A stretch of DNA of 64,000 nucleotides. Source: Planctomycetota bacterium. GTDB taxonomy: Bacteria; Planctomycetota; UBA8108; SXIK01. Positions within the stretch are counted from its first letter, which is position 1; each line of letters starts with the position of its first letter. Below are positions 24,789 through 37,422 of this stretch, one piece after another. Position numbers and translations under genes: made by a program. The stretch is taken from the NCBI GenBank assembly GCA_965223845.1, contig CBDCXR010000004.1:5568001-5632000 (forward strand), read 5' to 3'. Under the pieces are notes generated by a model. The model made no database searches. It had not been told where the DNA came from and saw only the letters and a list, made by a program, of their open reading frames with translations.

Positions 24789-27700
24789 CTAAGGACAAAC
24801 GAGTCCATCCCCGGTCGGATCGAGTCCCGGTCCCGGATAGGGCGGCGGCGGCGCGTCGCCGTCCCCAAAAAGGAAGAAGAGCGAGTACAGCGGGTCGGAG
24901 ATATTGAGCACGCCGTCGTCGTTCGAGTCCATCCGATCGCGGCACGCCGGCCCCGATCCCGACGCAAAGAGCCAGTCGAGCGTCCGAATCGCGTCGGCGA
25001 TCGTGAGCGTTCCGTCCTCGTCCGCATCGCCGCGACGGAACGGAGTCGTCGGCGTCTCCTCGAACGAGATCGCGCCCATATCGCTCTGGTCGAGTCCCGT
25101 CGCGATGCACGGTGAGCCGGGCCGGAGGGAGTAATCGCCCGCAAGGACGTCGCGGAAGAGCGGGTCGAGCGAGATGTTCCCGAGTCCCGGCCAGAGGGCG
25201 TCCGAGATGTTCGAGTAGGAAAACTCGACCGTAGAGAGATCATCGAGCTTGACGTCGATCCCGTTGTTCCAAGAGATCGTGCTGTGAAAGATGCCGTGCC
25301 CGCCGTCCGGGGCGCCGTCCTTCGAGAAGAGATTGATCCCCTCTTGATTCCCGACGAGCGTGTTGTGATGACTGTTTTCGACGGTGACGCCATTCTTGAG
25401 CGCCATCGCGGTGCCGCAGTTGTAGATCAGATTCCCGCTCACCGAAGGCGCACCGAGCGGACCGTTCCCTTCGAGAGAGAGCGCCTTGTCCTGGATGTTC
25501 ACGAAGACGTTGTCGCGGATGTCAACGCTCGTCCGGCCGAGGTCGATCCCGTCGTCCGATCCGTCGATGAACGTACAGCCCTCGATCCGCGAGCGCTCGG
25601 TTCCGTTTCCGTCGAAGTCGATCGCGTCCTTGTCGCCGGCCATCTCTTCGAAGCGGCATCCGAGGATGATCACGGTCGAGTCGGTGCCGTGGACACCCTC
25701 CTGGATGTGCTTGAATTCGCTGTCGAGAACTTCGAGCCGAGAATCGACCCCGTCGATCGCGTTCGTCGTGAGGCGCGTGAATCGACAGTCCTCGACGAGG
25801 ATCTTCGCGTTCGTCGGTGCGATGTGGCCGGCGAATCCCGCCGGCTCGTCGCCAAAATCGAACTCGCAGTAGCGGAAGACGTGCGTGAAGCTCGCGGGCG
25901 ATGTTCCCGTTCCCTCGATCCCGATCCCGCCCCACCGGCCGTCGCAGGTTCCCGCACGAAAGACGACCGGCGCGGCGGCCGTGCCCTCGGCGAAGATGCG
26001 ACCGTCGACGAGGATGGAGACGCCCGGATCGCCGAAGATCTCCGTGCCCGACTCGATCGAGAGGGATCCGCCCGCTGGAACCGTCACGTCGGCGGTCAGG
26101 CGATAGGGACCACCGTCCGCGGTCCAGGTCACATCGCCGGCGAGAGTTCCGCTGACGAGCGTAAATCCGCCGGTGATGCGGCGGACGTCGACATCGATCG
26201 ATTCAACGGGATCGCCGCGGGTGTCGATCGAAGTGACCTCGAAGCGGTTGTCGCCGACATCGACTGAGACGAGCGCGCTCCAGCGAGCCGCCATCGCGTC
26301 CCAGTCGACATCGATGCCGTCGATCTGAACTCCGGTTGCCCCACAGGCGTCGGCGGTACCCGTGAGAAGTACAGTCGGCTGAGTGGTGTAGATCTTCTCG
26401 CCGCAGCCCACGCCCTGCGATGACTCCGCACCGAAGCGAAGCATCGGCGAGAGAGAGAAATCCGTCGAGTCGAGGGTTCCATTGAGCCCGACGATCGCGA
26501 GCACGTTCGTGCCTTCTTCGACCACGTTCGCAAACGGAGATAGATCGAAAAACTCGACTCCGTCAGCCTCGTGGCTCCCGTCCGCGGTGTCGCCGTGTGC
26601 GATCGGATCCCCCGGAGCGCCGACGTTGTTCCGGGCCACTTCCACGCCGTTGAGGAATGCGACGAACGCGTCATCGTAATTGATCGCCAGCTCGAGATTG
26701 CCGAAGAGCACGGGGTCCGCGACGTCGAACGCCCGGCGAATGTAGACGGTCGAGTAGCCGCCCCGCATATCGAGGAGCTCGGTCGCGTCGTCGCCGTCGC
26801 CGTACCCGAATCCGCTTCGTCCGGCCTCCCAGCCGGCGTCGTCGAAATCTACGGTCGTCCACGCTAGCGTTCCACCCGACGGCTCCGCATCCCCGCGGAC
26901 GTACATCCACGTCTCGCCCCAATCGATGATCGCGTCTCCCATCGCGGAGCCGGTCCCGCCGCCGAGGCGCTGCGGGATGTTCTCGTCGAAGAACCCGATG
27001 CGCGCCGTGATGAACTGATCGATGCCGTCGATGGTCCCAAAACCGAACAACGGTTCGATCAGACGAAAGCGTTGGCGAGTTTCGAGGCGCGAAAACACGC
27101 CGAACCGCAGATCGAGGAGGTTGCAGTAGTAGAGCCGCGCGAATCGCGGGTGCGTGAGGAACCGCCGTACGGTTTGGAGCTGCGAGCGAAAGAGCGGCTC
27201 GGTGCGGTTCTCGTAGGTTTCCTCGATGTCCCAGGGAATCAGCACCCACCGTCCGGCGTCGGGTCGAGTCGATCCGGGCGGGACGTGGTAGAGCGAGTAG
27301 TCTTCGCCGCTTCGATTTTGGATCGAGCCGTCGGCATTGGAGAGACACGCCTGCAGCGCGAAGAACCGCGCCCATTGATCGACGTCGATGAGCTGCTCCA
27401 GGCGATCGGCGAACTCCTCGTCGGACGTTTCGTCGGGATCGAACGCGCGCGTCAACTCGACGACGTCCGAATAATCGTCTTCCTCGCGGTTGCTCGACTT
27501 TCGGTAGTAGAGACGATAGCTCTCGGGGTCCGGACCGAGATAACGGAGATCCGCCTCGAACGGCGTATCGGGCTCGGAGGGATCGAGCGCGCGGTAGAGG
27601 TTACCGTTCGAACGTGCACCGGGGCCGTAGTACCGGTCGAGGAAATCCTGATCGAGCCGCTCCTTGCGAATGTAGCGCTCGTCGAGATCGCCGCGGACAG

Positions 27701-30464
27701 TCAAGTTCACCGTCCACTCCTGCGGGCTCGGCATTCCGGCGCGGCGGAAGAGATCCGCGGCGAGGATCTCGTGCTCGATCTCCTGCGAGTTGAGATTGAG
27801 GCGCTGAATTCCCTCGAAGCGTCGATCGGCGGGGAACTGCACGCGAAAGGACTTCCGCGTCGCACCGCGCGCCGCCGAGCCGCGATAGCGGATTCCGGCG
27901 AGGTGACGGATCGTCCCGTCGCCTTCATCGTCGATCGCGATGAAGGTTCCGTAGAGGAGGACGTCGCTGTCTTCGTCGCGTGAACTGAGCTCGTCCCAGT
28001 CGTTGTCCTTCAGGATGAGATAGTAGTTCACCGAACCGTTGAGCGGCGGAACACTGTCGATGACCTGATAGAGGTAGTCGGGACCGTCGAAACCCGCGTA
28101 CGGTGCGACCTCGGGCGCGCGTGGGACGAGCGTCGTCTGTCCGTCCGCCGTCTCGACCTCGATCCGGTACGCGACGATCTGGCCGGCGCTTCGGGCGGGA
28201 AGAGTCCCGGCGTACCGGCCATCGCCCGCGACGGCGTCGCCTCCCGTTCCGTCGTCCGCGAGGGGCGCAATGCCCGAGCCTCCACCGCCGTCAACTCGCC
28301 ACAGGCAGCGCACCGCGACGATGGGACTCACGGACGACACACCGCATTCGACGACGACCCCCTCTCCGCTCCGCGGAATCGCCGGCGAATGAGTCGCTTC
28401 GCGCACGACCGCCGATGGCGTAGCGTCGTAGGCGTCGTTCGCCGCGGCCGGCGATCCGCCCTCGGGTCCGTCGGTCCACGCCGCGCCCGCCCGGTTGTCG
28501 AGCCCGGGATGGACGAGCTCGATCGTTCGGCCCGTCCCGTCCGCATCGAGCGGCCACTCGCTTCCGACGAAGGTTCGATCATCGACCTCGTCGGCGGGCT
28601 CCTCGTCGTTGACGGGACCGCCGTCGCCGTACTTCACGCGATCGGCGAGATTGCCGAGCGAATCCCGAAGATTGATCGTGTCCGAAGAATGCGAGAACGC
28701 GCCGCTCCAATCGCCGACCACCTTGGCGGCGTCGACGCCCGGATGGTTTGCGAGAAACCGATCGCGCGACGACGCGACCACGAGATAGTCCTCCGCGGCA
28801 ATTGTCTGCCCCGCCGGGAAAGCGAAGTCGATCCCTTTCGTGATCTCCCAATCGGTCAGGTCGACTGCGTCCGCCGTGCGGTTGTAGAGCTCGATCCACT
28901 GGTCGGGATCGGAGCAATTCCGGGCGCACGTCTCGTCGATCGGAACGGGAAGTGGGTGATAGTGGATCTCATTGATCACGACGGAGGTCGTAGGCGCGAA
29001 CGTGTTCGCCGCTCCCGAGCTGGGCGTGACGAGGACGAAGGCGTCGTTGTCGCCGTCCGGAACCCGCCCGTAGCTGTAGCCGTTCTCCCCCGGATCTCCC
29101 GGACGCGGATCGAGCCCGTCGACGTAGGTGCGACCATCGGGTGCGACGAGTGCGTAGGTTGCGCCACTCAGAAGTACGTCGAAGCCGAGCTGGCCGTCCG
29201 AGATCGATGCAAACCCACCCGAGGGAATCAGTTCTGCGTCGAGCGTCGACGACTGCCCGAGCGAGTCGACGATGCGATAGCCGGATAGGTTGACCGAGTC
29301 GCGCGTCGGGTTGTAGAGCTCGACGAAGCCGGCCGAGCCCGGCTCGGTCGCCTTGACCTCGTTGATGACGACGGACCCGCGGCTCGAACCGCCGCCGGCG
29401 TCGCCTCCGATTCGCGCGCGCAGGACGGGAATGAAGCTGCAGTCCGAACTATCGATATCCGCGTTGTGCACCTGCACCGCGAGAACGTTCGTTCCGGCCC
29501 GGAGGAGCTCCTTCGGCACGGGAAAGAGCTCGGCGTCGTCCGCTTCGTGTGTGCCCTCGGTAGTATCATTGTGCGCGACCGGGCTCCCGGCGTCTCCGAG
29601 CTCGGCGCGCGCGAATTCCGTTCCGTTCAGGTACGCCACGAAGCCGTCGTCGTACTGAATCTCGAGCGTGATCTGGCGGATCTCGCCGAGATCCGCCTCG
29701 CGCACTTCGAACGTCCGGCGTGCTGCGAAGGACACGTAGCCGCCCTGCATGTCGAGGAGCTCCGTACGATCGTCACCGTCGTCGTAGCCGATCCCCGCTT
29801 GCCCGGTCGCCCACGCGCCGTCGTCGAACTCGAGCTCGTTCCACCCTTCGGGGTACGGGTTCGTCCCTTTCTCGTAGCTCCACATCGCGCCGTCGGCGAT
29901 GAGGACCTCCTGATCCGCCGCGGCCACTGCGAGCCGCGGTCGATTCTCCGCCCCGGGAGTGCCGTCGACGAGCCGACTCGGCTGCCAGCTCCGCGAGAGA
30001 TCCGGAGACGCGTGCGGGTGGGTGAGCTCGAGGCTCGGGCCGAGTCCATCGGGTGACGACGGCCACGGCCCGCCGTCGCCGTAGTGCACCTGCGAGATGA
30101 CGGCGCCGAGACGCGTTCGGAGCCGAACGATCTCTCCCGCGTTGCTGAGCTGTCCGGCGAAGTCCCCGACGACCGCGTCGACTCCGTAGCGCGAACGAGT
30201 GTGCTCGGCATTCGGGCTGACGAGAAGGTAGGTCTTCGGCTCGATGACCGTCCCGTTCGGGATGATCAAATCGATGCCATCGTCGAAGATCCATCCGGAA
30301 AGATCGACCGCGGTCCCGCCGCGGTTGTAGAGCTCGACGAATTGATCATCGTTGAGACCACTGAGGGGATTGTAGTGGATCTCGTTGATGACGACGTCGA
30401 AGTCGCTCCCGAACGCGGGAACGCTGACGAGTGCCGCAAGGAGCGGGAACAATCGAGGATGCAT
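24789..30464 (-). CDS. Giant secreted protein (~1890 aa): three lamin-tail domains, duplicated beta-sandwich, CotH kinase, beta-helix and C-terminal dockerin-like domain
   Basis: VVINE-led domains three times; CotH motifs GIRYRG..RKSFRV and LIPWD; beta-helix with DAIDFD/DGIDL; FRRGDADEDG. Start reassigned to MHPRLFPLL. Confidence 0.85.
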   Translation of the reverse strand: MHPRLFPLLAALVSVPAFGSDFDVVINEIHYNPLSGLNDDQFVELYNRGGTAVDLSGWIFDDGIDLIIPNGTVIEPKTYLLVSPNAEHTRSRYGVDAVVGDFAGQLSNAGEIVRLRTRLGAVISQVHYGDGGPWPSSPDGLGPSLELTHPHASPDLSRSWQPSRLVDGTPGAENRPRLAVAAADQEVLIADGAMWSYEKGTNPYPEGWNELEFDDGAWATGQAGIGYDDGDDRTELLDMQGGYVSFAARRTFEVREADLGEIRQITLEIQYDDGFVAYLNGTEFARAELGDAGSPVAHNDTTEGTHEADDAELFPVPKELLRAGTNVLAVQVHNADIDSSDCSFIPVLRARIGGDAGGGSSRGSVVINEVKATEPGSAGFVELYNPTRDSVNLSGYRIVDSLGQSSTLDAELIPSGGFASISDGQLGFDVLLSGATYALVAPDGRTYVDGLDPRPGDPGENGYSYGRVPDGDNDAFVLVTPSSGAANTFAPTTSVVINEIHYHPLPVPIDETCARNCSDPDQWIELYNRTADAVDLTDWEITKGIDFAFPAGQTIAAEDYLVVASSRDRFLANHPGVDAAKVVGDWSGAFSHSSDTINLRDSLGNLADRVKYGDGGPVNDEEPADEVDDRTFVGSEWPLDADGTGRTIELVHPGLDNRAGAAWTDGPEGGSPAAANDAYDATPSAVVREATHSPAIPRSGEGVVVECGVSSVSPIVAVRCLWRVDGGGGSGIAPLADDGTGGDAVAGDGRYAGTLPARSAGQIVAYRIEVETADGQTTLVPRAPEVAPYAGFDGPDYLYQVIDSVPPLNGSVNYYLILKDNDWDELSSRDEDSDVLLYGTFIAIDDEGDGTIRHLAGIRYRGSAARGATRKSFRVQFPADRRFEGIQRLNLNSQEIEHEILAADLFRRAGMPSPQEWTVNLTVRGDLDERYIRKERLDQDFLDRYYGPGARSNGNLYRALDPSEPDTPFEADLRYLGPDPESYRLYYRKSSNREEDDYSDVVELTRAFDPDETSDEEFADRLEQLIDVDQWARFFALQACLSNADGSIQNRSGEDYSLYHVPPGSTRPDAGRWVLIPWDIEETYENRTEPLFRSQLQTVRRFLTHPRFARLYYCNLLDLRFGVFSRLETRQRFRLIEPLFGFGTIDGIDQFITARIGFFDENIPQRLGGGTGSAMGDAIIDWGETWMYVRGDAEPSGGTLAWTTVDFDDAGWEAGRSGFGYGDGDDATELLDMRGGYSTVYIRRAFDVADPVLFGNLELAINYDDAFVAFLNGVEVARNNVGAPGDPIAHGDTADGSHEADGVEFFDLSPFANVVEEGTNVLAIVGLNGTLDSTDFSLSPMLRFGAESSQGVGCGEKIYTTQPTVLLTGTADACGATGVQIDGIDVDWDAMAARWSALVSVDVGDNRFEVTSIDTRGDPVESIDVDVRRITGGFTLVSGTLAGDVTWTADGGPYRLTADVTVPAGGSLSIESGTEIFGDPGVSILVDGRIFAEGTAAAPVVFRAGTCDGRWGGIGIEGTGTSPASFTHVFRYCEFDFGDEPAGFAGHIAPTNAKILVEDCRFTRLTTNAIDGVDSRLEVLDSEFKHIQEGVHGTDSTVIILGCRFEEMAGDKDAIDFDGNGTERSRIEGCTFIDGSDDGIDLGRTSVDIRDNVFVNIQDKALSLEGNGPLGAPSVSGNLIYNCGTAMALKNGVTVENSHHNTLVGNQEGINLFSKDGAPDGGHGIFHSTISWNNGIDVKLDDLSTVEFSYSNISDALWPGLGNISLDPLFRDVLAGDYSLRPGSPCIATGLDQSDMGAISFEETPTTPFRRGDADEDGTLTIADAIRTLDWLFASGSGPACRDRMDSNDDGVLNISDPLYSLFFLFGDGDAPPPPYPGPGLDPTGDGLVCP

Positions 30465-30713
30465 CGGGATCGTGGGTCTCGAGTCCAACCACCCCGAATC
30501 GTTCACCCGGAGACGCGAGCGATCGGTCTCCTACGACGTTCACGATCGAGTCATCACTGCCTGGTGACCGCTCGACCGTTCTCGCGCCCGTGGACGCGAT
30601 TCTACCCCAATGGTCGGAGCGCCACACCACCCCCGCCGTGCCGCGTCCGGCCGTTCGGTGGCCGACCGGCCCGTACGAGCGTTGTTCGCCCAGCCGGGCG
30701 GAGACGGAGCCGC

Positions 30714-31271
30714 TCAGCGGCGAAAGACGGCCCGCGTCGTCTGCGGGAGGTGGCACTGCCGGCAGTTCGCGCGCTCGGGGTGCGAGCAGCGGATTTCGTC
30801 GCGAGCACCCGGGCCCGTGTGACACGCGAAGCAGTTCTCCCGCCCGAGCGCGGCGTGGGGCATGACGGGCGGGGCGAGCGCGTGGTGGCGCGCGCCGGAG
30901 CGGAGATCTTGGGCGAGTCCGGCGAACGTCGACGCTGCGAAGCGTTCGGTCGTCGCGCGCGGTACATGGCACTGCCGACAGTTCGCCCACTTCCCGCCGA
31001 CCAGACCCTCCTCATGCGGCTGCGGCGGGGCGAAGCCGACGCCGGAGATCGCGAGCCCTTCGCCGGCGTGGCACGATACGCAGCTAGCGCCGTAGGGTGG
31101 GTGGGGAATGACGGGAGGCGCCCCATCGTACGCGCGCCGAGACGCTCGCACGTTCGCCGCGGTCTTCTCCGAACCGGCGGGTCCGCCACCCGAAGGCGGT
31201 GCTTCGGATTCGCAGCCGGCGGCGGACACGGCGATGGCGAAGAGAATCGATCGCGCAGAAACGCGTCTCAC
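30714..31271 (-). CDS. napB: NapB-like cytochrome c subunit, tetraheme, putative lipoprotein
   Basis: RAYDGAPPVIPH NapB motif plus a second APPVMPH copy; four CxxCH; lipobox SAAGC; GTGA overlap with the napA stop. Confidence 0.8.
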   Translation of the reverse strand: MRRVSARSILFAIAVSAAGCESEAPPSGGGPAGSEKTAANVRASRRAYDGAPPVIPHPPYGASCVSCHAGEGLAISGVGFAPPQPHEEGLVGGKWANCRQCHVPRATTERFAASTFAGLAQDLRSGARHHALAPPVMPHAALGRENCFACHTGPGARDEIRCSHPERANCRQCHLPQTTRAVFRR

Positions 31272-33640
31272 GATGTCCCCGCGCGCTCGACGCGCACCGC
31301 GCACTTCTTGAAGTCCGGCTCCTTCGAGATGTTGTCCATCGCGTCGAGCGTGAGGAGATTGGCGAGTCGCTTCTCGTCGAAGAAGGGGACGAAGACGCTG
31401 CCGCGCTCCGGGCGGCCGCGACCGTCGATCTCGACGGTTAGCTCGAGCTCACCGCGGCGGCTGACGACACGCACGCGATCTCCCTTCGCGACGCCGAGCT
31501 CGATGGCGTCGGCTCGATTGAGCTCGACGTACGCCTCGGGAACCGATTGGTGCAGCTCGCGCACTCGCCGCGTCATCGAACCCGTGTGCCAGTGCTCGAG
31601 AACGCGCCCCGTGGAAAGCCAAAGCGGAAATTCATCGTCGGGCGCCTCCGCCGGTGGATGGTACGGCCGCAGCCAGACCGCAGCGCGTTCGCCGAAGCCC
31701 TTCGCCTTGTAGAAGTGGACGCCCTTCTCCTTTTTGACGTAGGGATCGTGCCCGGCGGCGTAGCGGTAGCGCGTTTCCTTACCGTCGACGACCGGCCAGC
31801 GCAGGCCGCGCGTCGCTCGCAGCTCGTCGTAGCTCGCGAGATCCTTTCCGCGGCCGAGCGTGAACTTCCGGTACTCTTCGTAGAGCTCGCGGTGCCAACT
31901 CTCGGCCGCCCACGGGAAGAGCTTCCCGTAGCCCATGCGTTTGGCGACCTCTACGATCTGCCACGCGTCTTCCTTCGCCTCGCCGGGCGGATCGATGAGG
32001 CGCTCCCAATGCTGCGTGCGGCGTTCGGTGTTTCCGAACATGCCCTCGCGCTCGACCCACGCGGCCGACGGCAGGATCAAATCCGCGACGTCCGTCGTCG
32101 GAGTCGGATAGATCTCGCTCACGACGATGAACCGACCGTCGCCTGGGCGACGCGCAAACCGGCGCAAGTTGGGCAACGAGACCCACGGGTTCGTCGTCTG
32201 GATCCACATCGCGCGCACGTCTCCGCGCTCGAGCGCGCGGAACATGTCGATCGTGTGGTAGCCGGGCTTCGCCGGAATCGAGTTCGCGGGGAGACCCCAG
32301 AGCTTTTCGGTGAACTCGCGGTGCTCGGGCTTCGTCACGAGCATGTCGGCCGGCAGTCGATTCGAGAGCGTACCGACCTCACGCGCGGTACCGCAGGCCG
32401 AGGGCTGCCCGGTCAAGCTGAGCGGGTTGCTTCCCGGACGGCTGATCTTTCCGGTGACGAGGTGAAGATCGTTGATGAGGTTGTTCATCCACGTGCCGCG
32501 GACGTGCTGGTTGACGCCCATGCACCAGAGACTCACCGTTCCGCGATTCGAGTCGCCGTAGAGATCGGCGAGAAGCCGAAGCTGCGCCGCGGGGACGCCG
32601 CTCGTCTTCTCGACGGACGCGGGATCGTAGTCCTTCAAGAACGCCCGCATCTCTTCGAGCGAGGAGGGTTTCGCTGCGTCCTTGAACGTGTAGCGCTTCG
32701 CCGAGTCGCCATGACAGCCGTAGCCGATCGCCTCGAGGTCCTCGACGCCGCGTCGAAAAACGACGTTCTCTTCGATGAACGCCGTGTCGATACGGTTCGA
32801 TTCGAAGAGCAGGTGAAGGATGCCGTTCGCGATCGCGAGGTCCGTGCCCGGCCGAAATCGAACGCGGACGTCGGCGTACTGGCTCGTCGGAGTTTCGCGC
32901 GTCGCGAGATCGACGACTCGGACGGACGGACGGCGGCGCTTCGATTCGAGGATGCGACCGAACAGCACGGGGTGCGTCTCGGCCATGTTGTTACCCCAGA
33001 GGACGAAATCGTCGCCCGACTCGAAATCGTCGTAGCAGCCCATCGGCTCGTCGCTCTGGAACTGCGTCATGAATCCCATGACGGCCGAAGCCATGCAGAG
33101 GCGCGCATTCGGATCGAGGTTGTTCGAGCGCATGCCGCCCTTCACCCACTTGAGCGCGGCGTAGCCATCGTAGATCGTCCACTGACCCGACCCGTACATC
33201 GCGACGGCCTCGGGTCCGGACTCGGCGAGAGTCGACGAAAACTTCTCGGCGACGAGATCGAGCGCCGCGTCCCACGAGATGCGCTCGAGAGTCCCGTCCG
33301 CGCGACGGCGCTGCGGGTGCGTGAGGCGGTCTTCGCCGTAGAGGAATCCCGGCAGGTGGTACCCCTTAACGCAGAGGAGTCCGCGGTTGACGGGGCTCGC
33401 TTCGTCGCCGCGCACCGCGACGACGCGCCCCTTGTCGACGCCGACTTCGACGCCGCACCCCGTGCCGCAGAATCGGCAGGGCGCCTTTCCCCAAGTGAGG
33501 TCCGCATGCCTCGTACCCGCAACCGGTCCCGCCGCGATGCGCGCCGCCTCGTCGCGCTCCTTGCACGAGAAGGCGACGACTCCACCAGCGGCTCCGCCGA
33601 GCCAAGTGATGAAATCGCGTCGGTCCATCGGATTCTTCAT
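31268..33640 (-). CDS. napA: Periplasmic nitrate reductase catalytic subunit
   Basis: Tat signal DRRDF; KAPCRFCGTGC...C 4Fe-4S motif; DPNARLCMASA Mo-ligand Cys; SLTGQPSACGTAREVG; TGRVLEHWHTGSMTRR; PDFKKCAV. Confidence 0.96.
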   Translation of the reverse strand: MKNPMDRRDFITWLGGAAGGVVAFSCKERDEAARIAAGPVAGTRHADLTWGKAPCRFCGTGCGVEVGVDKGRVVAVRGDEASPVNRGLLCVKGYHLPGFLYGEDRLTHPQRRRADGTLERISWDAALDLVAEKFSSTLAESGPEAVAMYGSGQWTIYDGYAALKWVKGGMRSNNLDPNARLCMASAVMGFMTQFQSDEPMGCYDDFESGDDFVLWGNNMAETHPVLFGRILESKRRRPSVRVVDLATRETPTSQYADVRVRFRPGTDLAIANGILHLLFESNRIDTAFIEENVVFRRGVEDLEAIGYGCHGDSAKRYTFKDAAKPSSLEEMRAFLKDYDPASVEKTSGVPAAQLRLLADLYGDSNRGTVSLWCMGVNQHVRGTWMNNLINDLHLVTGKISRPGSNPLSLTGQPSACGTAREVGTLSNRLPADMLVTKPEHREFTEKLWGLPANSIPAKPGYHTIDMFRALERGDVRAMWIQTTNPWVSLPNLRRFARRPGDGRFIVVSEIYPTPTTDVADLILPSAAWVEREGMFGNTERRTQHWERLIDPPGEAKEDAWQIVEVAKRMGYGKLFPWAAESWHRELYEEYRKFTLGRGKDLASYDELRATRGLRWPVVDGKETRYRYAAGHDPYVKKEKGVHFYKAKGFGERAAVWLRPYHPPAEAPDDEFPLWLSTGRVLEHWHTGSMTRRVRELHQSVPEAYVELNRADAIELGVAKGDRVRVVSRRGELELTVEIDGRGRPERGSVFVPFFDEKRLANLLTLDAMDNISKEPDFKKCAVRVERAGTS

Positions 33641-35211
33641 TTGCCGATCCACTCGTGCTCGGGACGCGCCATGATATCGTCGATGACTTTGGCCACGGCG
33701 TCGGCGGCGGCTGCCTTCCCTTCCTCTCGCGCGTGGGCGACGATCTCACGCGCCTGAGGGATGAGCTCCATGTAGAATCGCTCGGCCACTTCGTACATGC
33801 CGTGCCAGTGTGCGTAGTCGGGCGCCATCATGCTCGCACCGTGACGAGCTCGTCGACCTTCGTGGTGCCAGAGATAGAACCAAGTCCACTCGATCTCCTC
33901 GTCGAAAGACGTCGAAGTTCGGAGCCCTTGCTCGAGTAGCGCGGCCATGATCTTCTGGCCGGGCTTGGCGAACTTTTCGTTGTAGAGCACGACGAAGTCA
34001 TCGTACTGGCGGTAGAAGCCGTTGACGTAGTCCGGCGTGTGGCAGTGAAGGCATACGTTCTTCATCTCTTGGCGTTTCGCCTGCCACGTGCTCTTGATCA
34101 ACGCGCGCCGTTTCTCCGGATCGGTCTCCTTGACGACGGCGTGATTCGCGTCCGTGTCCATGACGAGACTTACCGGCGGGCGATTCGTCCAGGAGATACG
34201 CTCGCCCGGGTCGTGCGTGATGCGGCCCTTGTTCTTCGAGTGGCCGGACATGTGACAAGTCGCACAGGTCGGCGCCTGTGAATAGTCCTTTCCGAGCACC
34301 CATTCCTTCGAGTCGAGGTTCAGCTCGTCCTTGAGATCGCGGTAGGCGACGCCGTGCTTCGACTCTTCGTAGATCTCCTTCTGCGGGTGGTCCGGACCGA
34401 GGTGACACTTGCCGCAGTTCTCCGGTTGGCGGGCGCGACGGGGCGAGAAGTCGTGTCGCGAGTGGCACGCGGAGCAAGAACCGCGCGAGCCGTCGAGATT
34501 GAGTCGCCCGATTCCGGTATTCGGCCACGTCCCCGGGTCGTAGAGGGGTCGGCCGTTGTCGTCCTTGCGGATTTTCGCGACGGCGTCGAGGTTCGTCGGC
34601 TTCCCGTCGGCGTCCGGCTTCAGCTCGACGACCGAGATGCGTCCGCCGTCCGTCGACTGAAGCGCGACGGCGCTCCCGTGGCATTGCTGGCAGCCGACGA
34701 ACGCGCTCGCCATGCCGTTGACCGGAGCCGAGCCGCGTCCGGGGGTCGGTGAATGCGGGTTGAACGGCTGGCGCGAGCCTTCGACGGTCTCGGCGAGAAA
34801 GTTATCGAGCGAATGAAGGATGTTCCCACCCTTGGCGTGGTGACTGCGGGCGAACTCATCGGCGACGTTCGGATGGCAACGTCCGCAATCCCGCGGCGTG
34901 ACGATCGTCGCGATTTGGTGTCCGTGGTGATTGAAGCCATCGACGTCGTCGGGTTCAGCCCGATGGCATTCCACGCAGCCGACGCCCTTCTCGGCGTGGG
35001 TACTCCCCTGCCAGTGCTGGACGATGCCCGGTGACGAATCTCCGTGGCAGCTGACGCAATCTTCCGAAGATTTCGGAATCGGATACGCGTGCGTTTCGAG
35101 TCCGGACTCGCGGCGCTTACGGAGGATCTCCATCGCTTGCACGAACACGAGGGAGAGAAGAAACGCGGCCCCGAGGCCCGCGATGATTCGTTTCTTGGTT
35201 TCTAGATTCAT
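33637..35211 (-). CDS. Octaheme HAO-family multiheme cytochrome c with an N-terminal membrane anchor or signal
   Basis: Eight CxxCH motifs (CVSCH, CVECH, CGRCH, CQQCH, CSACH, CGKCH, CATCH, CLHCH); HLGPDHPQKEIYEESKHG; APDYAHWHG. Confidence 0.92.
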   Translation of the reverse strand: MNLETKKRIIAGLGAAFLLSLVFVQAMEILRKRRESGLETHAYPIPKSSEDCVSCHGDSSPGIVQHWQGSTHAEKGVGCVECHRAEPDDVDGFNHHGHQIATIVTPRDCGRCHPNVADEFARSHHAKGGNILHSLDNFLAETVEGSRQPFNPHSPTPGRGSAPVNGMASAFVGCQQCHGSAVALQSTDGGRISVVELKPDADGKPTNLDAVAKIRKDDNGRPLYDPGTWPNTGIGRLNLDGSRGSCSACHSRHDFSPRRARQPENCGKCHLGPDHPQKEIYEESKHGVAYRDLKDELNLDSKEWVLGKDYSQAPTCATCHMSGHSKNKGRITHDPGERISWTNRPPVSLVMDTDANHAVVKETDPEKRRALIKSTWQAKRQEMKNVCLHCHTPDYVNGFYRQYDDFVVLYNEKFAKPGQKIMAALLEQGLRTSTSFDEEIEWTWFYLWHHEGRRARHGASMMAPDYAHWHGMYEVAERFYMELIPQAREIVAHAREEGKAAAADAVAKVIDDIMARPEHEWIGK

Positions 35212-35266
35212 GATTCGGTCCGCGCGAATTCCGCCCGAGTCCTGATCGCGGAGTCGACAGGACCCA

Positions 35267-36316
35267 TCAGTGCTCCACCGCCGCTTCCCAGACGGTGAAT
35301 CCGATGATCAACGACGCAGCGACGATGCCGATCCAAACGCTGAGCTCGACCCGGGGAAACAGCTTCCGCAGCGCCTGATCGATGAACGGCCAAAGGAACA
35401 TGACGAACACGATGAACCCGGTGCTAAGTACCGCGAAGGTCCCCGAGAAGAGTTTCAGCCACCGGAAGACGACGTAGAAGAACCACTCGGGCTTGATGAC
35501 CTCCGGAGTGGTCTGAGGATCTGCGCGAGCGCCGAGCTCCGCCGGCAGGCAGATCGCGAGCGTCGTGAGCACGATCATGATCACGAGGCCGATGATCAAT
35601 TCCGTGAAGAAGTGATCGGGAAAAAAACTAAACGTTCCGGATCCGTCCTTCGGATCCCTCTTGAATCGAAATTCCGTGACGCCTTGGAGCCGGATCAGCG
35701 TGATGTGAACGAAGAGGAGGAGCACCATCGCCATCGGGAGCACGGCCGCGTGAAGAATGAAGAACCGCGAGAGCGTGTGCTCACCGTAGACTTCACCGCC
35801 GAGGAGCATCCGCTTGAGGAATCCCCCGATCAGCGGGACGGTCTCGGCGATGTTGGCGCCGACCGTCGCACCCCAATAGCTGAGCTGCTCGTAGACGAGA
35901 CTGTAGCCCGTGAATCCCACGGTGATGGTGAGGAGGAGAAGACACATCCCCACCATCCAATTGAGCTCGCGCGGCTTTCGGTAGGCGCCGGTGAAATAGA
36001 CGCGCATCTGGTGGAGGATCACGGTCGCGACCATGAGGGTCGCGGCCCACTTGTGGAGGCTTCGGAAATACCAGCCGTACGTGGCTTCTTCCGTGATGTA
36101 GCGAACTGATTCGTAGGCGCGGGCGGCACTCGGCTCGTAGTAGAACGCGAGCAGGATGCCGGTCACGATCTGAACGACGAAGAGATACGCGGGCGTTCCT
36201 CCGAGACAGAACCACCAGTGCTTGAGGTGATTCGGAACCGGCTCGTTCGTGAGCTCCCGGAGGCGATTGCCCGAGACCGGAACGCGATCGTAGAACCAGT
36301 TCGCCACTCGCGACAT
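35267..36316 (-). CDS. Cytochrome b subunit of a Rieske/cytochrome b complex (b6-like N-domain fused to subunit IV-like C-domain)
   Basis: WFCLGG; four heme-b His (SLHKW, ILHQM, ILHAA, FVHIT); GFTGYSL; IKPEWFF Qo motif. Start reassigned to MSRVANWF. Confidence 0.93.
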   Translation of the reverse strand: MSRVANWFYDRVPVSGNRLRELTNEPVPNHLKHWWFCLGGTPAYLFVVQIVTGILLAFYYEPSAARAYESVRYITEEATYGWYFRSLHKWAATLMVATVILHQMRVYFTGAYRKPRELNWMVGMCLLLLTITVGFTGYSLVYEQLSYWGATVGANIAETVPLIGGFLKRMLLGGEVYGEHTLSRFFILHAAVLPMAMVLLLFVHITLIRLQGVTEFRFKRDPKDGSGTFSFFPDHFFTELIIGLVIMIVLTTLAICLPAELGARADPQTTPEVIKPEWFFYVVFRWLKLFSGTFAVLSTGFIVFVMFLWPFIDQALRKLFPRVELSVWIGIVAASLIIGFTVWEAAVEH

Positions 36317-36318
36317 CG

Positions 36319-36921
36319 TCAGGCGAGCCCCGTCGTGTCCGCATCCCGGCGGTGCTTCCCGCCGCACTCGAGGTCTCGGTCCTGATCGCCGCCGCTAGGG
36401 GGATCGGCGGCGGCGAGCTCGTCGGTCGCTACTCGTACGTAGAGCAGCCCCCCGCGCACGTCGAGCGGGAACCGCAGGAGAGACTGCTTCGCGTCGGCCG
36501 GTGGGCCCGAACGCGGCGTGCCGTCGCTCGCGAACACGCCGTTGTGGCACGGGCAGAAGAAGCGATCGTTCTGGGGCTCCCAAAAGACCTTGCAGCCGAG
36601 ATGCGGGCAAGTGCTCGAGAGCGCGAGAAAATCGTTTGCCGTTTCGCCTTCACCGCGCCGCGTGATCGTGACGCGCGCGCCGGCGGGAGTTTCATACGCG
36701 ATCGCATCGCCGACGGAGAGATCTGCGACGCGCGCGACGTAGAGCCACGCCGTCGGTCGCGCCTTCGACGGATAAAGATACCGGCCGCCGTAAAGAGCGA
36801 ACGTGCCGTAGCTGGCGGCGAGGCTGCCCGCCATCACCCATCCCGTGGCTCCGCCGATGAACTCTCGGCGTTCGACGTCGTTCGGTTTCGTCTCGTCAGC
36901 CGCCGGATTCGAATCCACCAC
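36319..36921 (-). CDS. Rieske 2Fe-2S subunit
   Basis: Tat-like ERREF plus a transmembrane helix; CPHLGC and CPCH boxes; GPP motif. Confidence 0.93.
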   Translation of the reverse strand: MVDSNPAADETKPNDVERREFIGGATGWVMAGSLAASYGTFALYGGRYLYPSKARPTAWLYVARVADLSVGDAIAYETPAGARVTITRRGEGETANDFLALSSTCPHLGCKVFWEPQNDRFFCPCHNGVFASDGTPRSGPPADAKQSLLRFPLDVRGGLLYVRVATDELAAADPPSGGDQDRDLECGGKHRRDADTTGLA

Positions 36922-36957
36922 GTCCCTCTGATCCCCAATCCCAGTCTCAGAAGCACC

Positions 36958-36987
36958 GGATTAAAAGATATTCCGACCTTTTTATCC
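36958..36987. promoter_or_regulatory. AT-rich imperfect palindrome, candidate Rrf2 operator upstream of the Rieske gene
   Basis: GGATTAAAAG-N10-CTTTTTATCC (9/10 symmetric) in a high-GC background. Confidence 0.5.
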
Positions 36988-37008
36988 AGAGAAGATCCGA
37001 ACGATCAT

Positions 37009-37422
37009 CTACTCGTCGCGACTGAATGCATCGCGGCCCAGGTCGGCAATCGTCGCGCCGTCGATCCACTCTTCGTAGGATTCCCGCACGCGCGACCACG
37101 CTCCGTGGAGCGGGCACGGATCCGCGTCCGAACAATCGGGAAAGCCGAATATGCACCGAAAGAGAACACTCTCGCCGTCGAGCGCGCGAAGGATGTCGCC
37201 GACCCTCGTCTCGAGCGCTTCCGGCGAGGCGCGAAAGCCGCCCCCCGGACCCTTGCGTGATTCGACGAATCCGCGCTTGCCGAGATCCGCGAGCACCTTC
37301 GCCAGGTACGGGGCCGATAAATCATAGTCGGCGGCGAGAGTTTCGACGTCGTACCACTCGCCTTCTGCGCGGACGAGCGCATGAAGCGCGCGGAGAGCGT
37401 ATTGACTCGTCTTAGAGAGCAA
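37009..37422 (-). CDS. Rrf2 family transcriptional regulator with candidate Fe-S ligands
   Basis: SKTSQYALRAL, YLAKVL, VESRKGPGGGF; CIFGFPDCSDADPCPLH (three Cys plus His). Confidence 0.92.
   Translation of the reverse strand: MLSKTSQYALRALHALVRAEGEWYDVETLAADYDLSAPYLAKVLADLGKRGFVESRKGPGGGFRASPEALETRVGDILRALDGESVLFRCIFGFPDCSDADPCPLHGAWSRVRESYEEWIDGATIADLGRDAFSRDE

Follow-up and report, generated by a model that had tools for sequence, protein, structure and literature searches.

In a 64,000-nucleotide stretch of the Planctomycetota bacterium assembly GCA_965223845.1 (contig CBDCXR010000004.1, positions 5,568,001 to 5,632,000 of the forward strand; hereafter the window, meaning this whole stretch), a cluster of six genes at positions 30714-37422 may specify a modular, quinol-driven membrane complex that reduces nitrate and nitrite and couples these reductions to the proton-motive force. 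We assign this reading a probability of roughly 55%. Behind a gene for an Rrf2-family regulator, the cluster encodes a Rieske protein, a cytochrome b, an octahaem cytochrome c of the hydroxylamine oxidoreductase (HAO) superfamily, the periplasmic nitrate reductase NapA and a tetrahaem cytochrome resembling two NapB proteins in tandem. The idea of a Rieske/cytochrome b pair that feeds Nap and Hao has already been published, and the module described here is real and widespread.

All six genes lie on the minus strand. The Rrf2-family transcription regulator (137 amino acids; 37009-37422; PF02082, 100.6 bits) heads the co-oriented block and is followed by a Rieske [2Fe-2S] subunit of 200 amino acids (36319-36921; PF00355, 38.9 bits) with an RREF signal/anchor resembling those of the twin-arginine translocation (Tat) pathway. 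An unsplit b6-type cytochrome b of 349 amino acids comes next (35267-36316; PF00033, 183.8 bits; PF00032, 29 bits), and behind it lie the octahaem cytochrome c, with 524 amino acids and eight CxxCH motifs on an HAO-type scaffold (33637-35211; PF13447, 83.5 bits), and NapA, with 790 amino acids and the Tat signal RRDF (31268-33640; NF010055, 966.3 bits against a cut-off of 904). The block closes with the tetrahaem "double NapB" of 196 amino acids and four CxxCH motifs (30714-31304; PF03892, 30.8 bits against a cut-off of 25.1).

The junctions between these genes are tight. The hao and napA genes overlap by 4 bp (ATGA), given a NapA start at ATG 33640, and napA and the tetrahaem gene overlap by 4 bp (GTGA), given a tetrahaem start at GTG 31271; the alternative tetrahaem start at GTG 31304, which yields an "MRG..." start as in 7 of 18 homologues, extends the latter overlap to 37 nucleotides. 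Two nucleotides separate the Rieske stop codon from the cytochrome b ATG at 36316, a start that gives the 349-residue length of 28 aligned orthologues. The cytochrome b reading frame is open back to GTG 36367 and that of NapA back to GTG 33652. Longer spacers are found between cytochrome b and hao (55 nucleotides) and between Rrf2 and the Rieske gene (88 nucleotides). No additional open reading frame (ORF) fits into the intergenic gaps, and the cluster is bordered by two unrelated genes, for a sulfatase and for an LTD/CotH/beta-helix protein; because of this, no gene for NapC, NapGH, NapD, NrfAH or cytochrome c1/f is present within the cluster. The first-pass annotation, made from the letters of the window, had described six co-oriented genes, 4-bp overlaps at hao/napA and napA/napB, and a cluster devoid of these genes and of napF. 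Profile matches and ORF reading bear out the identities, the strand and the missing genes, and direct reading of the junctions bears out both overlaps, which depend on the start codons chosen.

The arrangement recurs well beyond this genome. Relatives of the octahaem protein were collected with one genome per species, which gave at least 584 relatives, and synteny was read from the best 80 loci by tblastn of six window proteins. Nearly all scored candidates (7999 of 8000) matched the octahaem protein, the best 120 being 73-88% identical to it and bearing names from Planctomycetota, Acidobacteriota and others. Of the best 80 loci, 71 had room for a Rieske and a cytochrome b gene ahead of the octahaem gene, and 68 of these had both immediately upstream, the exceptions being one locus with neither gene (L031), one with diverged copies (L075) and one with a partial cytochrome b (L085). 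NapA was directly downstream in 23 of 64 loci with room, and the tetrahaem gene followed NapA in 20 of 20. The titles of the Nap-linked loci name at least five phyla: Planctomycetota, Acidobacteriota, Gemmatimonadota, Krumholzibacteriota and Eiseniibacteriota. Identity across phyla is about 70% for the octahaem protein and about 78% for cytochrome b, and the median spacings are short (Rieske-cytochrome b, -4 nucleotides, n=62; cytochrome b-hao, 45 nucleotides; hao-napA, 9 nucleotides, n=23; napA-tetrahaem, -28 nucleotides, n=21). These synteny counts show that the arrangement is more than chance, and they answer the possibility, raised in the first-pass annotation, that it might not be conserved elsewhere.

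A sample of 401 Planctomycetota genomes gave a similar view within the phylum. Some HAO-family match was present in 130 of the 401, and 46 carried an octahaem orthologue that was full-length and at least 67% identical. In 17 of those 46, including the source genome, NapA of at least 67% identity was immediately adjacent, and in 1 more the pair was split at contig ends. Two genomes carry a diverged version of the same five-gene order (L132 and L134), with octahaem proteins 48-49% and NapA proteins 56-58% identical to those of the window. Because such diverged copies exist, the five-gene arrangement is old as well as widespread.

The Rieske and cytochrome b subunits have the residues expected of a quinol-oxidizing pair of the bc1/b6f type. 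The Rieske protein carries the cluster motifs CPHLGC and CPCHNGVF, binding boxes of bc1/b6f type, and among its orthologues CPHLGC is kept in 67 of 68 and CPCHNG[VAT]F in 60 of 68. In bc1 types a Ser and a Tyr raise the Rieske potential, and the CPCHNG[VAT]F box found here lacks both. In cytochrome b, the haem-ligand residues His 88, 102, 189 and 204 are invariant in 29 of 29 orthologues, as is the P-E-W of the Qo motif, in which the next residue is F in 25, Y in 2 and W in 2. Residue 37, the position of the haem-ci Cys in b6-type proteins, is Cys in 15 and Ala in 14 of the same 29. No gene for cytochrome c1, cytochrome f or a dihaem c subunit occurs in the cluster (PF02167 was not searched in the remaining genome), and the only c-type proteins encoded there are the octahaem and tetrahaem cytochromes. 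Two further Rieske/cytochrome b sets are present in the same genome (L148, G000:C4:4117000-4129000, and L149, G000:C4:666000-678000). In one of them, an 813-residue cytochrome b is joined to c-type cytochrome domains; in the other, the b6 is split and accompanied by a subunit-IV-like gene, with no evident c-type partner. Because these two other sets exist and their cytochromes b are only 37-40% identical to that of the operon, the operon pair is a dedicated paralogue.

The octahaem cytochrome belongs to a branch resembling IhOCC of Ignicoccus and the epsilon-Hao proteins. Its best relative among solved structures is 4QO5 (IhOCC), at 139.6 bits for the sequence alone and 180.6 bits with a family profile, followed by 6H5L (Kuenenia Tyr-less HAO) and then by 1FGJ (N. 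europaea HAO) and 4N4J and 6HIF (Kuenenia HOX and HDH). The matches to these last three (E 1e-15 to 1e-20) cover the central region only and do not reach the Tyr region, and the NrfA family PF02335 scores only 16.7 bits on the protein. According to the accessible part of PMC9250108, IhOCC is an octahaem nitrite reductase that lacks the P460 cross-link, and it stands there in a list beside the nitrite-reducing NrfA and ONR. In a tree of octahaem proteins, a branch with 99% support has the operon family on one side and, on the other, the HOX/HDH group with its Tyr, HAOr-type proteins and the anammox type linked to Rieske. On the operon's side of this branch are also the diverged Nap-linked copies, a stand-alone anammox paralogue, an IhOCC-like paralogue and a soluble clade linked to NrfH; the branches are long, which leaves the details of the tree unsure. 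For the anammox ORF L137, no match to a solved structure was found at E 1e-50.

Two features of the octahaem sequence bear on its role. The protein has a conserved membrane anchor at its N-terminus, where a hydrophobic run is present in 77 of 79 relatives, with the polar residues Q25, E28 and E35 invariant, and this anchor fits a fixed subunit in place of cytochrome c1/f. The second feature concerns the catalytic site. The reference Tyr of this region was located via the HOX orthologue in the anammox genome G326, which matches 6T5E and 4N4J end to end, and was identified as the residue that aligns with the HDH Tyr in 6HIF; we take it to be the cross-linking residue (Tyr451 in HOX, Tyr462 in HDH). 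Opposite this Tyr, MAFFT sets W469 and hhalign sets Y466, so that the two aligners differ by three residues. M461 and W469 are invariant in 29 of 29 sequences and, under the MAFFT register, match exactly the Met-x7-Trp signature of epsilon-Hao, in which Trp takes the place of the Tyr and Met precedes it by eight residues (Haase 2017, as quoted in the available part of PMC8940962). Y466, three residues from W469, is invariant in 120 of 120 close homologues. In the NrfH-linked sister clade residue 466 is Phe and W469 is kept, and IhOCC has Trp opposite Y466 and Phe opposite W469.

This sister clade was seen in L145, L146 and L147 (genomes G400, G244 and G289) and in G179, where a soluble octahaem protein is encoded directly behind an NrfH-type tetrahaem gene (100-114 bits), which amounts to an NrfHA-like module built on an HAO-family enzyme. 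Because NrfH at 100-114 bits adjoins the octahaem gene in these four genomes, the nearest outgroup of the operon octahaem is served by the textbook quinol dehydrogenase of a periplasmic reductase, which matters for the function ascribed to the family. In another genome of the phylum, an octahaem orthologue (G374:C23:45431-46995) is broken by an in-frame TAA.

The nitrate reductase is a NapA of the NapAB type. It scores 939.5 bits against TIGR01706 (cut-off 930.55), so that it passes both NCBIfam NapA equivalogs, and among solved relatives the NapAB-type structures 2NYA (827 bits), 3ML1 and 1OGY score higher than the monomeric enzymes of the 2NAP/2JIO group (about 602 bits). Its orthologues keep CxxCxxxC in 22 of 22 and RRxF in 17 of 22. 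The tetrahaem protein has four CxxCH motifs in 23 of 23 homologues, and the homologue alignment resolves it into two NapB-like repeats, each with the pattern A-P-P-x-x-P-H ... CxxCH ... CxQCH. Solved NapB chains match it only weakly (E 0.06-0.36), and its AlphaFold2 model, with a mean predicted local distance difference test (pLDDT) score of 49.2, was unusable and was not used. It has a lipobox-like AAGC, and a crude test finds a lipobox in 11 of 23 homologues; the protein is probably a lipoprotein. At one further locus (L133, G301:C55), a core whose octahaem protein is 67% identical is followed, after about 500 nucleotides, by a different Nap-like molybdoenzyme 42% identical to NapA.

The rest of the source genome (7.93 Mb in 4 contigs) was searched for other proteins that might feed NapA or reduce nitrite, and at 91.7% completeness each absence is to be read as "not found". 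The NapC/NirT/NrfH family PF03264 had no match, NapD had none, and NapH, whose cut-off is 213 bits, was matched at 57.9 bits at best; the search did not extend to NapG or NapF. NrfA was not found, a 26-bit match being an octahaem-TPR protein (G000:C4:1722964-1725225; L150:3964-6225, minus strand) of 754 amino acids with eight CxxCH motifs followed by TPR repeats. NirK scored 26 bits against a cut-off of 296, NirS gave only a marginal domain match in a 1653-residue frame (26.9 bits against the Pfam cut-off of 25.5), and NirB reached 67 bits against a cut-off of 578, the match being a siroheme-type enzyme in a 721-residue frame. Neither Hcp nor NrfH was found by tblastn with one query each. A second Nap-like molybdoenzyme is present. 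Elsewhere in the genome, a formate-dehydrogenase-like molybdoenzyme frame (G000:C4:4982918-4984939) contains an in-frame TGA and an in-frame TAA, is 34% and 30% identical to NapA in two pieces, and may be a selenocysteine enzyme or a broken gene. The first-pass annotation had allowed for a napC or napGH elsewhere in the genome that serves NapA; no NapC, and no NapH above its cut-off, was found.

The wider sample points the same way. Since PF03264 at E 1e-5 is noisy in the phylum (170 of 401 genomes), it was judged by score, and none of the 18 cluster genomes has a PF03264 match of NapC/NrfH strength, five having matches of E 1e-6 to 1e-8. NrfA (E up to 1e-20) occurs in 107 of the 401 genomes but in only 1 of the 18 cluster genomes, and in 3 of the 46 core genomes compared with 104 of the 355 others; related genomes are not independent, and these counts describe a tendency and not a test.

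The regulator at the head of the cluster scores 97.5 bits against TIGR00738, above the cut-off of 73.3, and falls far under the cut-offs of the NsrR, IscR and RirA equivalogs (43.8 bits against 182 for NsrR). It would probably sense a redox or N-oxide signal. Because only 3 of the 80 related loci (L031, L040 and L045) have an Rrf2 gene immediately upstream on the same strand, Rrf2 is a local addition to the operon. The spacer between Rrf2 and the Rieske gene holds an AT-rich inverted repeat on the minus strand at 36958-36987, GGATAAAAAG-N10-CTTTTAATCC, with 10-nucleotide arms, 9 of 10 positions complementary, and a 10-nucleotide gap, which could be an Rrf2 operator. The repeat is not conserved, since only 12 of 69 upstream regions of relatives have any AT-rich inverted repeat and all of these differ. 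The operon is presumably co-transcribed; a scan for sigma-70-like promoters returned 0 sites, and terminator-like sites were uninformative (6 against 4.9 expected). Directly downstream of the cluster, on the same strand, the window encodes a 1905-residue secreted-type protein with lamin-tail, CotH-kinase and beta-helix domains (24789-30506), with no evident operon link.

Taken together, these features suggest the following wiring. The Rieske protein and the unsplit b6-type cytochrome b would oxidize menaquinol at the Qo site, and the Rieske centre would pass the high-potential electron to the octahaem protein in place of cytochrome c1/f. The octahaem protein, held in the membrane by its N-terminal helix, would be both the "c subunit" and a terminal enzyme that reduces nitrite, most likely to ammonium. 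The lipid-anchored tandem NapB would draw electrons for NapA from the same haem chain, so that nitrate would yield nitrite next to the enzyme that uses it up. In canonical systems fed by NapC or NrfH, the reductions are not coupled to the proton-motive force. Here, because quinol would be oxidized at the Qo site, both reductions would be electrogenic and coupled to it. Each link of this proposed wiring has a precedent in other systems, among them the Caldithrix proposal, Nitrospira expression, the C. jejuni qcr mutant and Kuenenia co-migration. This is in outline the interpretation of the first-pass annotation, of which the synteny, the missing NapC, NrfH, NapD and NrfA and the anchored octahaem protein stand; the arrangement is not undescribed, however, the octahaem protein is not of the anammox type, and Nap is only an accessory. 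In a bolder form, the five proteins would make up a single membrane supercomplex that takes nitrate all the way to ammonium, eight electrons in all, on a Q-cycle, gains more energy per electron than NapC/NrfH-based ammonifiers and marks a large nitrate-ammonifying guild unseen by nrfA surveys; this form we regard as doubtful.

Several observations weigh against the quinol-driven nitrate and nitrite reductase complex as set out above. The core occurs without Nap in 41 of 64 loci, where the downstream genes vary and are often on the opposite strand. Mapped by parsimony onto a tree of 65 octahaem proteins, Nap linkage must have changed 14 times (shuffled mean 19.6), and at least 8 times on well-supported branches, and near-identical sisters differ in whether Nap is present (L034 and L041/L042/L047; L040 and L055; L056 and L057). 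Because the core stands alone in so many loci and the linkage has changed repeatedly on the tree, Rieske, cytochrome b and octahaem form a conserved core, and NapA and the tetrahaem protein a cassette that has been repeatedly gained or lost. Electron transfer from the octahaem protein to Nap would therefore not be built into the core, and the double NapB might bind to the Rieske protein instead or receive its electrons from another carrier. The Qi side, where quinone is reduced, may be of two forms and perhaps not uniform in its working, because the haem-ci Cys is present in only about half of the cytochrome b orthologues. The hhalign register leaves room for an oxidative P460-type site at Y466, with a Tyr-haem cross-link being unlikely. 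Absences from the source genome carry the weight of genes not found, as noted above, and both the cluster-bearing G240 and the diverged G215 also carry NrfA. Finally, some loci without Nap have Hcp, globins or a protoglobin kinase downstream, and together with the local Rrf2 gene such neighbours fit the handling of nitric oxide or hydroxylamine as well as they fit respiration.

This last observation leads to an alternative in which the core is a nitrosative-stress or detoxification module that removes nitric oxide, hydroxylamine or nitrite produced by Nap or by neighbouring organisms and serves neither energy conservation nor growth on nitrate. The Rrf2-family gene directly upstream in the window and the many Nap-less loci would suit such a role, as would the next gene in certain Nap-less relatives, which is Hcp in L042, a globin in L074 and L080 and a protoglobin histidine kinase in L056. 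Such neighbours, however, account for only 4 of the 25 downstream ORFs tested, most contexts being unrelated, and both the rarity of an upstream Rrf2 gene and the low NsrR score of the one in the window speak against this role. A quinol oxidase of three subunits that are still about 70-78% identical between phyla also exceeds the needs of a scavenger, and the lower frequency of NrfA in genomes with the module, to be read with the caution about related genomes given above, tells against it as well; we consider detoxification unlikely to be the main function. A different possibility concerns the product, the octahaem protein forming nitric oxide (or hydroxylamine) and not ammonium, so that the module would be the front end of denitrification or of a path of the reverse hydroxylamine:ubiquinone redox module (HURM) type, as proposed for anammox HAOr/Kuste4574 and for Nautilia. 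Kuenenia Tyr-less HAO reduces nitrite to nitric oxide, according to the accessible parts of PMC9250108 and 10.1101/2025.03.25.645162; papers on Deferribacter and Nautilia propose that Hao and Hcp act together via hydroxylamine; and with no NirK found and NirS marginal, the octahaem protein would perhaps be the sole enzyme of the source genome that forms nitric oxide. Against this, the family lies across the 99% branch from the HAOr-type paralogues, and its nearest solved relative, IhOCC, is the one listed with nitrite-reducing NrfA and ONR in the part of PMC9250108 already mentioned. Hcp, moreover, was not found in the source genome by tblastn, and we also judge this product improbable.

The chemistry might also be the same and its purpose assimilatory, with Nap supplying nitrite that the core turns into ammonium for biosynthesis, a role already suggested for Nitrospira. 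Against this idea, assimilatory nitrate reduction does not usually run through a periplasmic Nap. In its favour, NirB was not found in the source genome, and the available passages of PMC6606698 and PMC5767232 report that the N. moscoviensis ONR and the two Rieske/cytochrome b genes upstream of it are highly expressed with nitrite as the sole nitrogen source. The Nitrospira ONR, however, is likened to the operon octahaem by description only, and the siroheme-type enzyme (67 bits, 721-residue frame) together with the second Nap-like molybdoenzyme may already provide for assimilation; an assimilatory role is in our view distinctly unlikely. The opposite direction of catalysis would require that Y466 form a haem cross-link and that hydroxylamine be oxidized, its electrons flowing toward the chain. 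It draws on the hhalign register, in which Y466 stands opposite the Tyr aligned with the cross-linking Tyr of HOX and HDH, and on the invariance of Y466 among close homologues. The MAFFT register places W469 there instead, with M461 and W469 fitting Met-x7-Trp, and neither the Phe of the NrfH-linked sister clade, which keeps W469, nor the Trp of IhOCC opposite Y466 suggests a conserved cross-link. A Rieske centre accepts electrons from quinol and does not lead them from low-potential haems into the quinone pool. With no ammonia-oxidation context in the window either, an oxidative HAO is extremely improbable.

If the quinol-driven wiring is true, many Planctomycetota, Acidobacteriota, Gemmatimonadota and other bacteria of soils and sediments would couple their reduction of nitrate and nitrite to a proton-motive quinol oxidase, with no need of NapC, NrfH or NrfA. 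This would change both the energy yield assigned to nitrate ammonification and the marker genes by which ammonifiers are counted. One survey screened nrfA and onr only (PMC10716430); 17 of the 18 cluster genomes in the phylum sample lack nrfA, and the octahaem family is present in at least 584 species genomes from several phyla.

The first-pass annotation had left room for the arrangement being undescribed, and this does not hold: the same wiring was proposed for Caldithrix abyssi and the core has been described in Nitrospira, as the accessible texts on both indicate. In the open-access literature, supplements excluded, we found neither the five-gene form without NapGH, NapC and NapD and with a tandem NapB, nor a report of its spread over several phyla, nor a biochemical study of the module. 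The closest system is that of C. abyssi Cabys_2564-2556, for which a Rieske/cytochrome b pair was proposed to feed multihaem proteins in electrogenic nitrate ammonification (Kublanov et al. 2017, accessible part of PMC5317091). As described there, that cluster likewise unites NapA, a tetrahaem donor, Rieske, cytochrome b and a Tyr-less octahaem Hao, and the same text gives it no NapC, no dihaem NapB, no NrfA and no cytochrome c1. It differs in retaining NapF and also NapGH, which could serve as another quinol oxidase, in using NapM and, by the same account, in having nap ahead of the Rieske genes. Compared by description only, the cluster of the window has no NapG, NapH, NapF or NapD, uses the tandem NapB as donor and is ordered Rieske-cytochrome b-hao-napA-napB2.

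The core by itself resembles several known operons. In Nitrospira, ONR is preceded by two Rieske/cytochrome b genes (relevant parts of PMC6606698 and PMC5767232, citing Koch 2015 and Ushiki 2018), and a Rieske/cytochrome b/octahaem operon occurs in Nitrospina, Kuenenia and Methylomirabilis (PMC3578206). These cores share with the present one an octahaem protein in the place of cytochrome c1/f, read as reducing nitrite to ammonium, and theirs is the only such system with expression data. They differ in having no Nap attached and in a role read as assimilatory, and their octahaem proteins are likened to the operon family by description only. In Kuenenia stuttgartiensis, the HAO-like octahaem protein of Kuste4569-4574 (R/b-3) co-migrates with a Rieske/cytochrome b complex and is a proposed nitrite reducer, according to the available portions of 10.1101/2025.06.25.661457 and 10.1101/2025.03.25.645162. 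The likeness lies in an HAO-family octahaem protein tied to Rieske/cytochrome b. That complex, however, is described in those portions as having a split b6/subunit IV, extra hexa- or octahaem cytochromes and an NAD(P) oxidoreductase, and no such extra genes are present in the operon of the window. The analogy with anammox HAO-like subunits drawn in the first-pass annotation therefore needs qualification: such complexes exist, but the octahaem protein here is of another type. In the anammox genome G326, from the same phylum, the HAO-like gene within the Rieske/cytochrome b cluster shares 27% identity with the operon octahaem and has a C-terminal anchor, and orthology with it was rejected on this identity and on its position across the 99% branch; the closest paralogue in that genome, at 43% identity, stands alone.

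Other likenesses concern single parts of the module. IhOCC (Igni_0955 of Ignicoccus hospitalis, 4QO5) shares the HAO fold without the P460 cross-link and differs in being archaeal. The NrfH-linked sister clade and the epsilon-Hao of Campylobacterota share the motif block WH.EGRRAR...W.HG with the operon octahaem, the sister clade being about 50% identical to it over the C-terminal 300 residues; the sister clade differs in being soluble with a signal peptide, in relying on an NrfH-type quinol dehydrogenase and in having Phe at the position of Y466. On the side of nitrate reduction, experiments in C. jejuni have shown that Nap without NapC is fed by QcrABC and is electrogenic, with an H+/2e- of 2 (Garg, Taylor and Kelly 2018, accessible part of PMC6195509). 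As described there, the two systems agree in that a periplasmic Nap takes its electrons from a menaquinol:cytochrome c reductase, and they differ in that the C. jejuni enzyme serves the cell at large as its complex III, has a dihaem cytochrome c of its own, is not encoded with nap and involves no octahaem partner.

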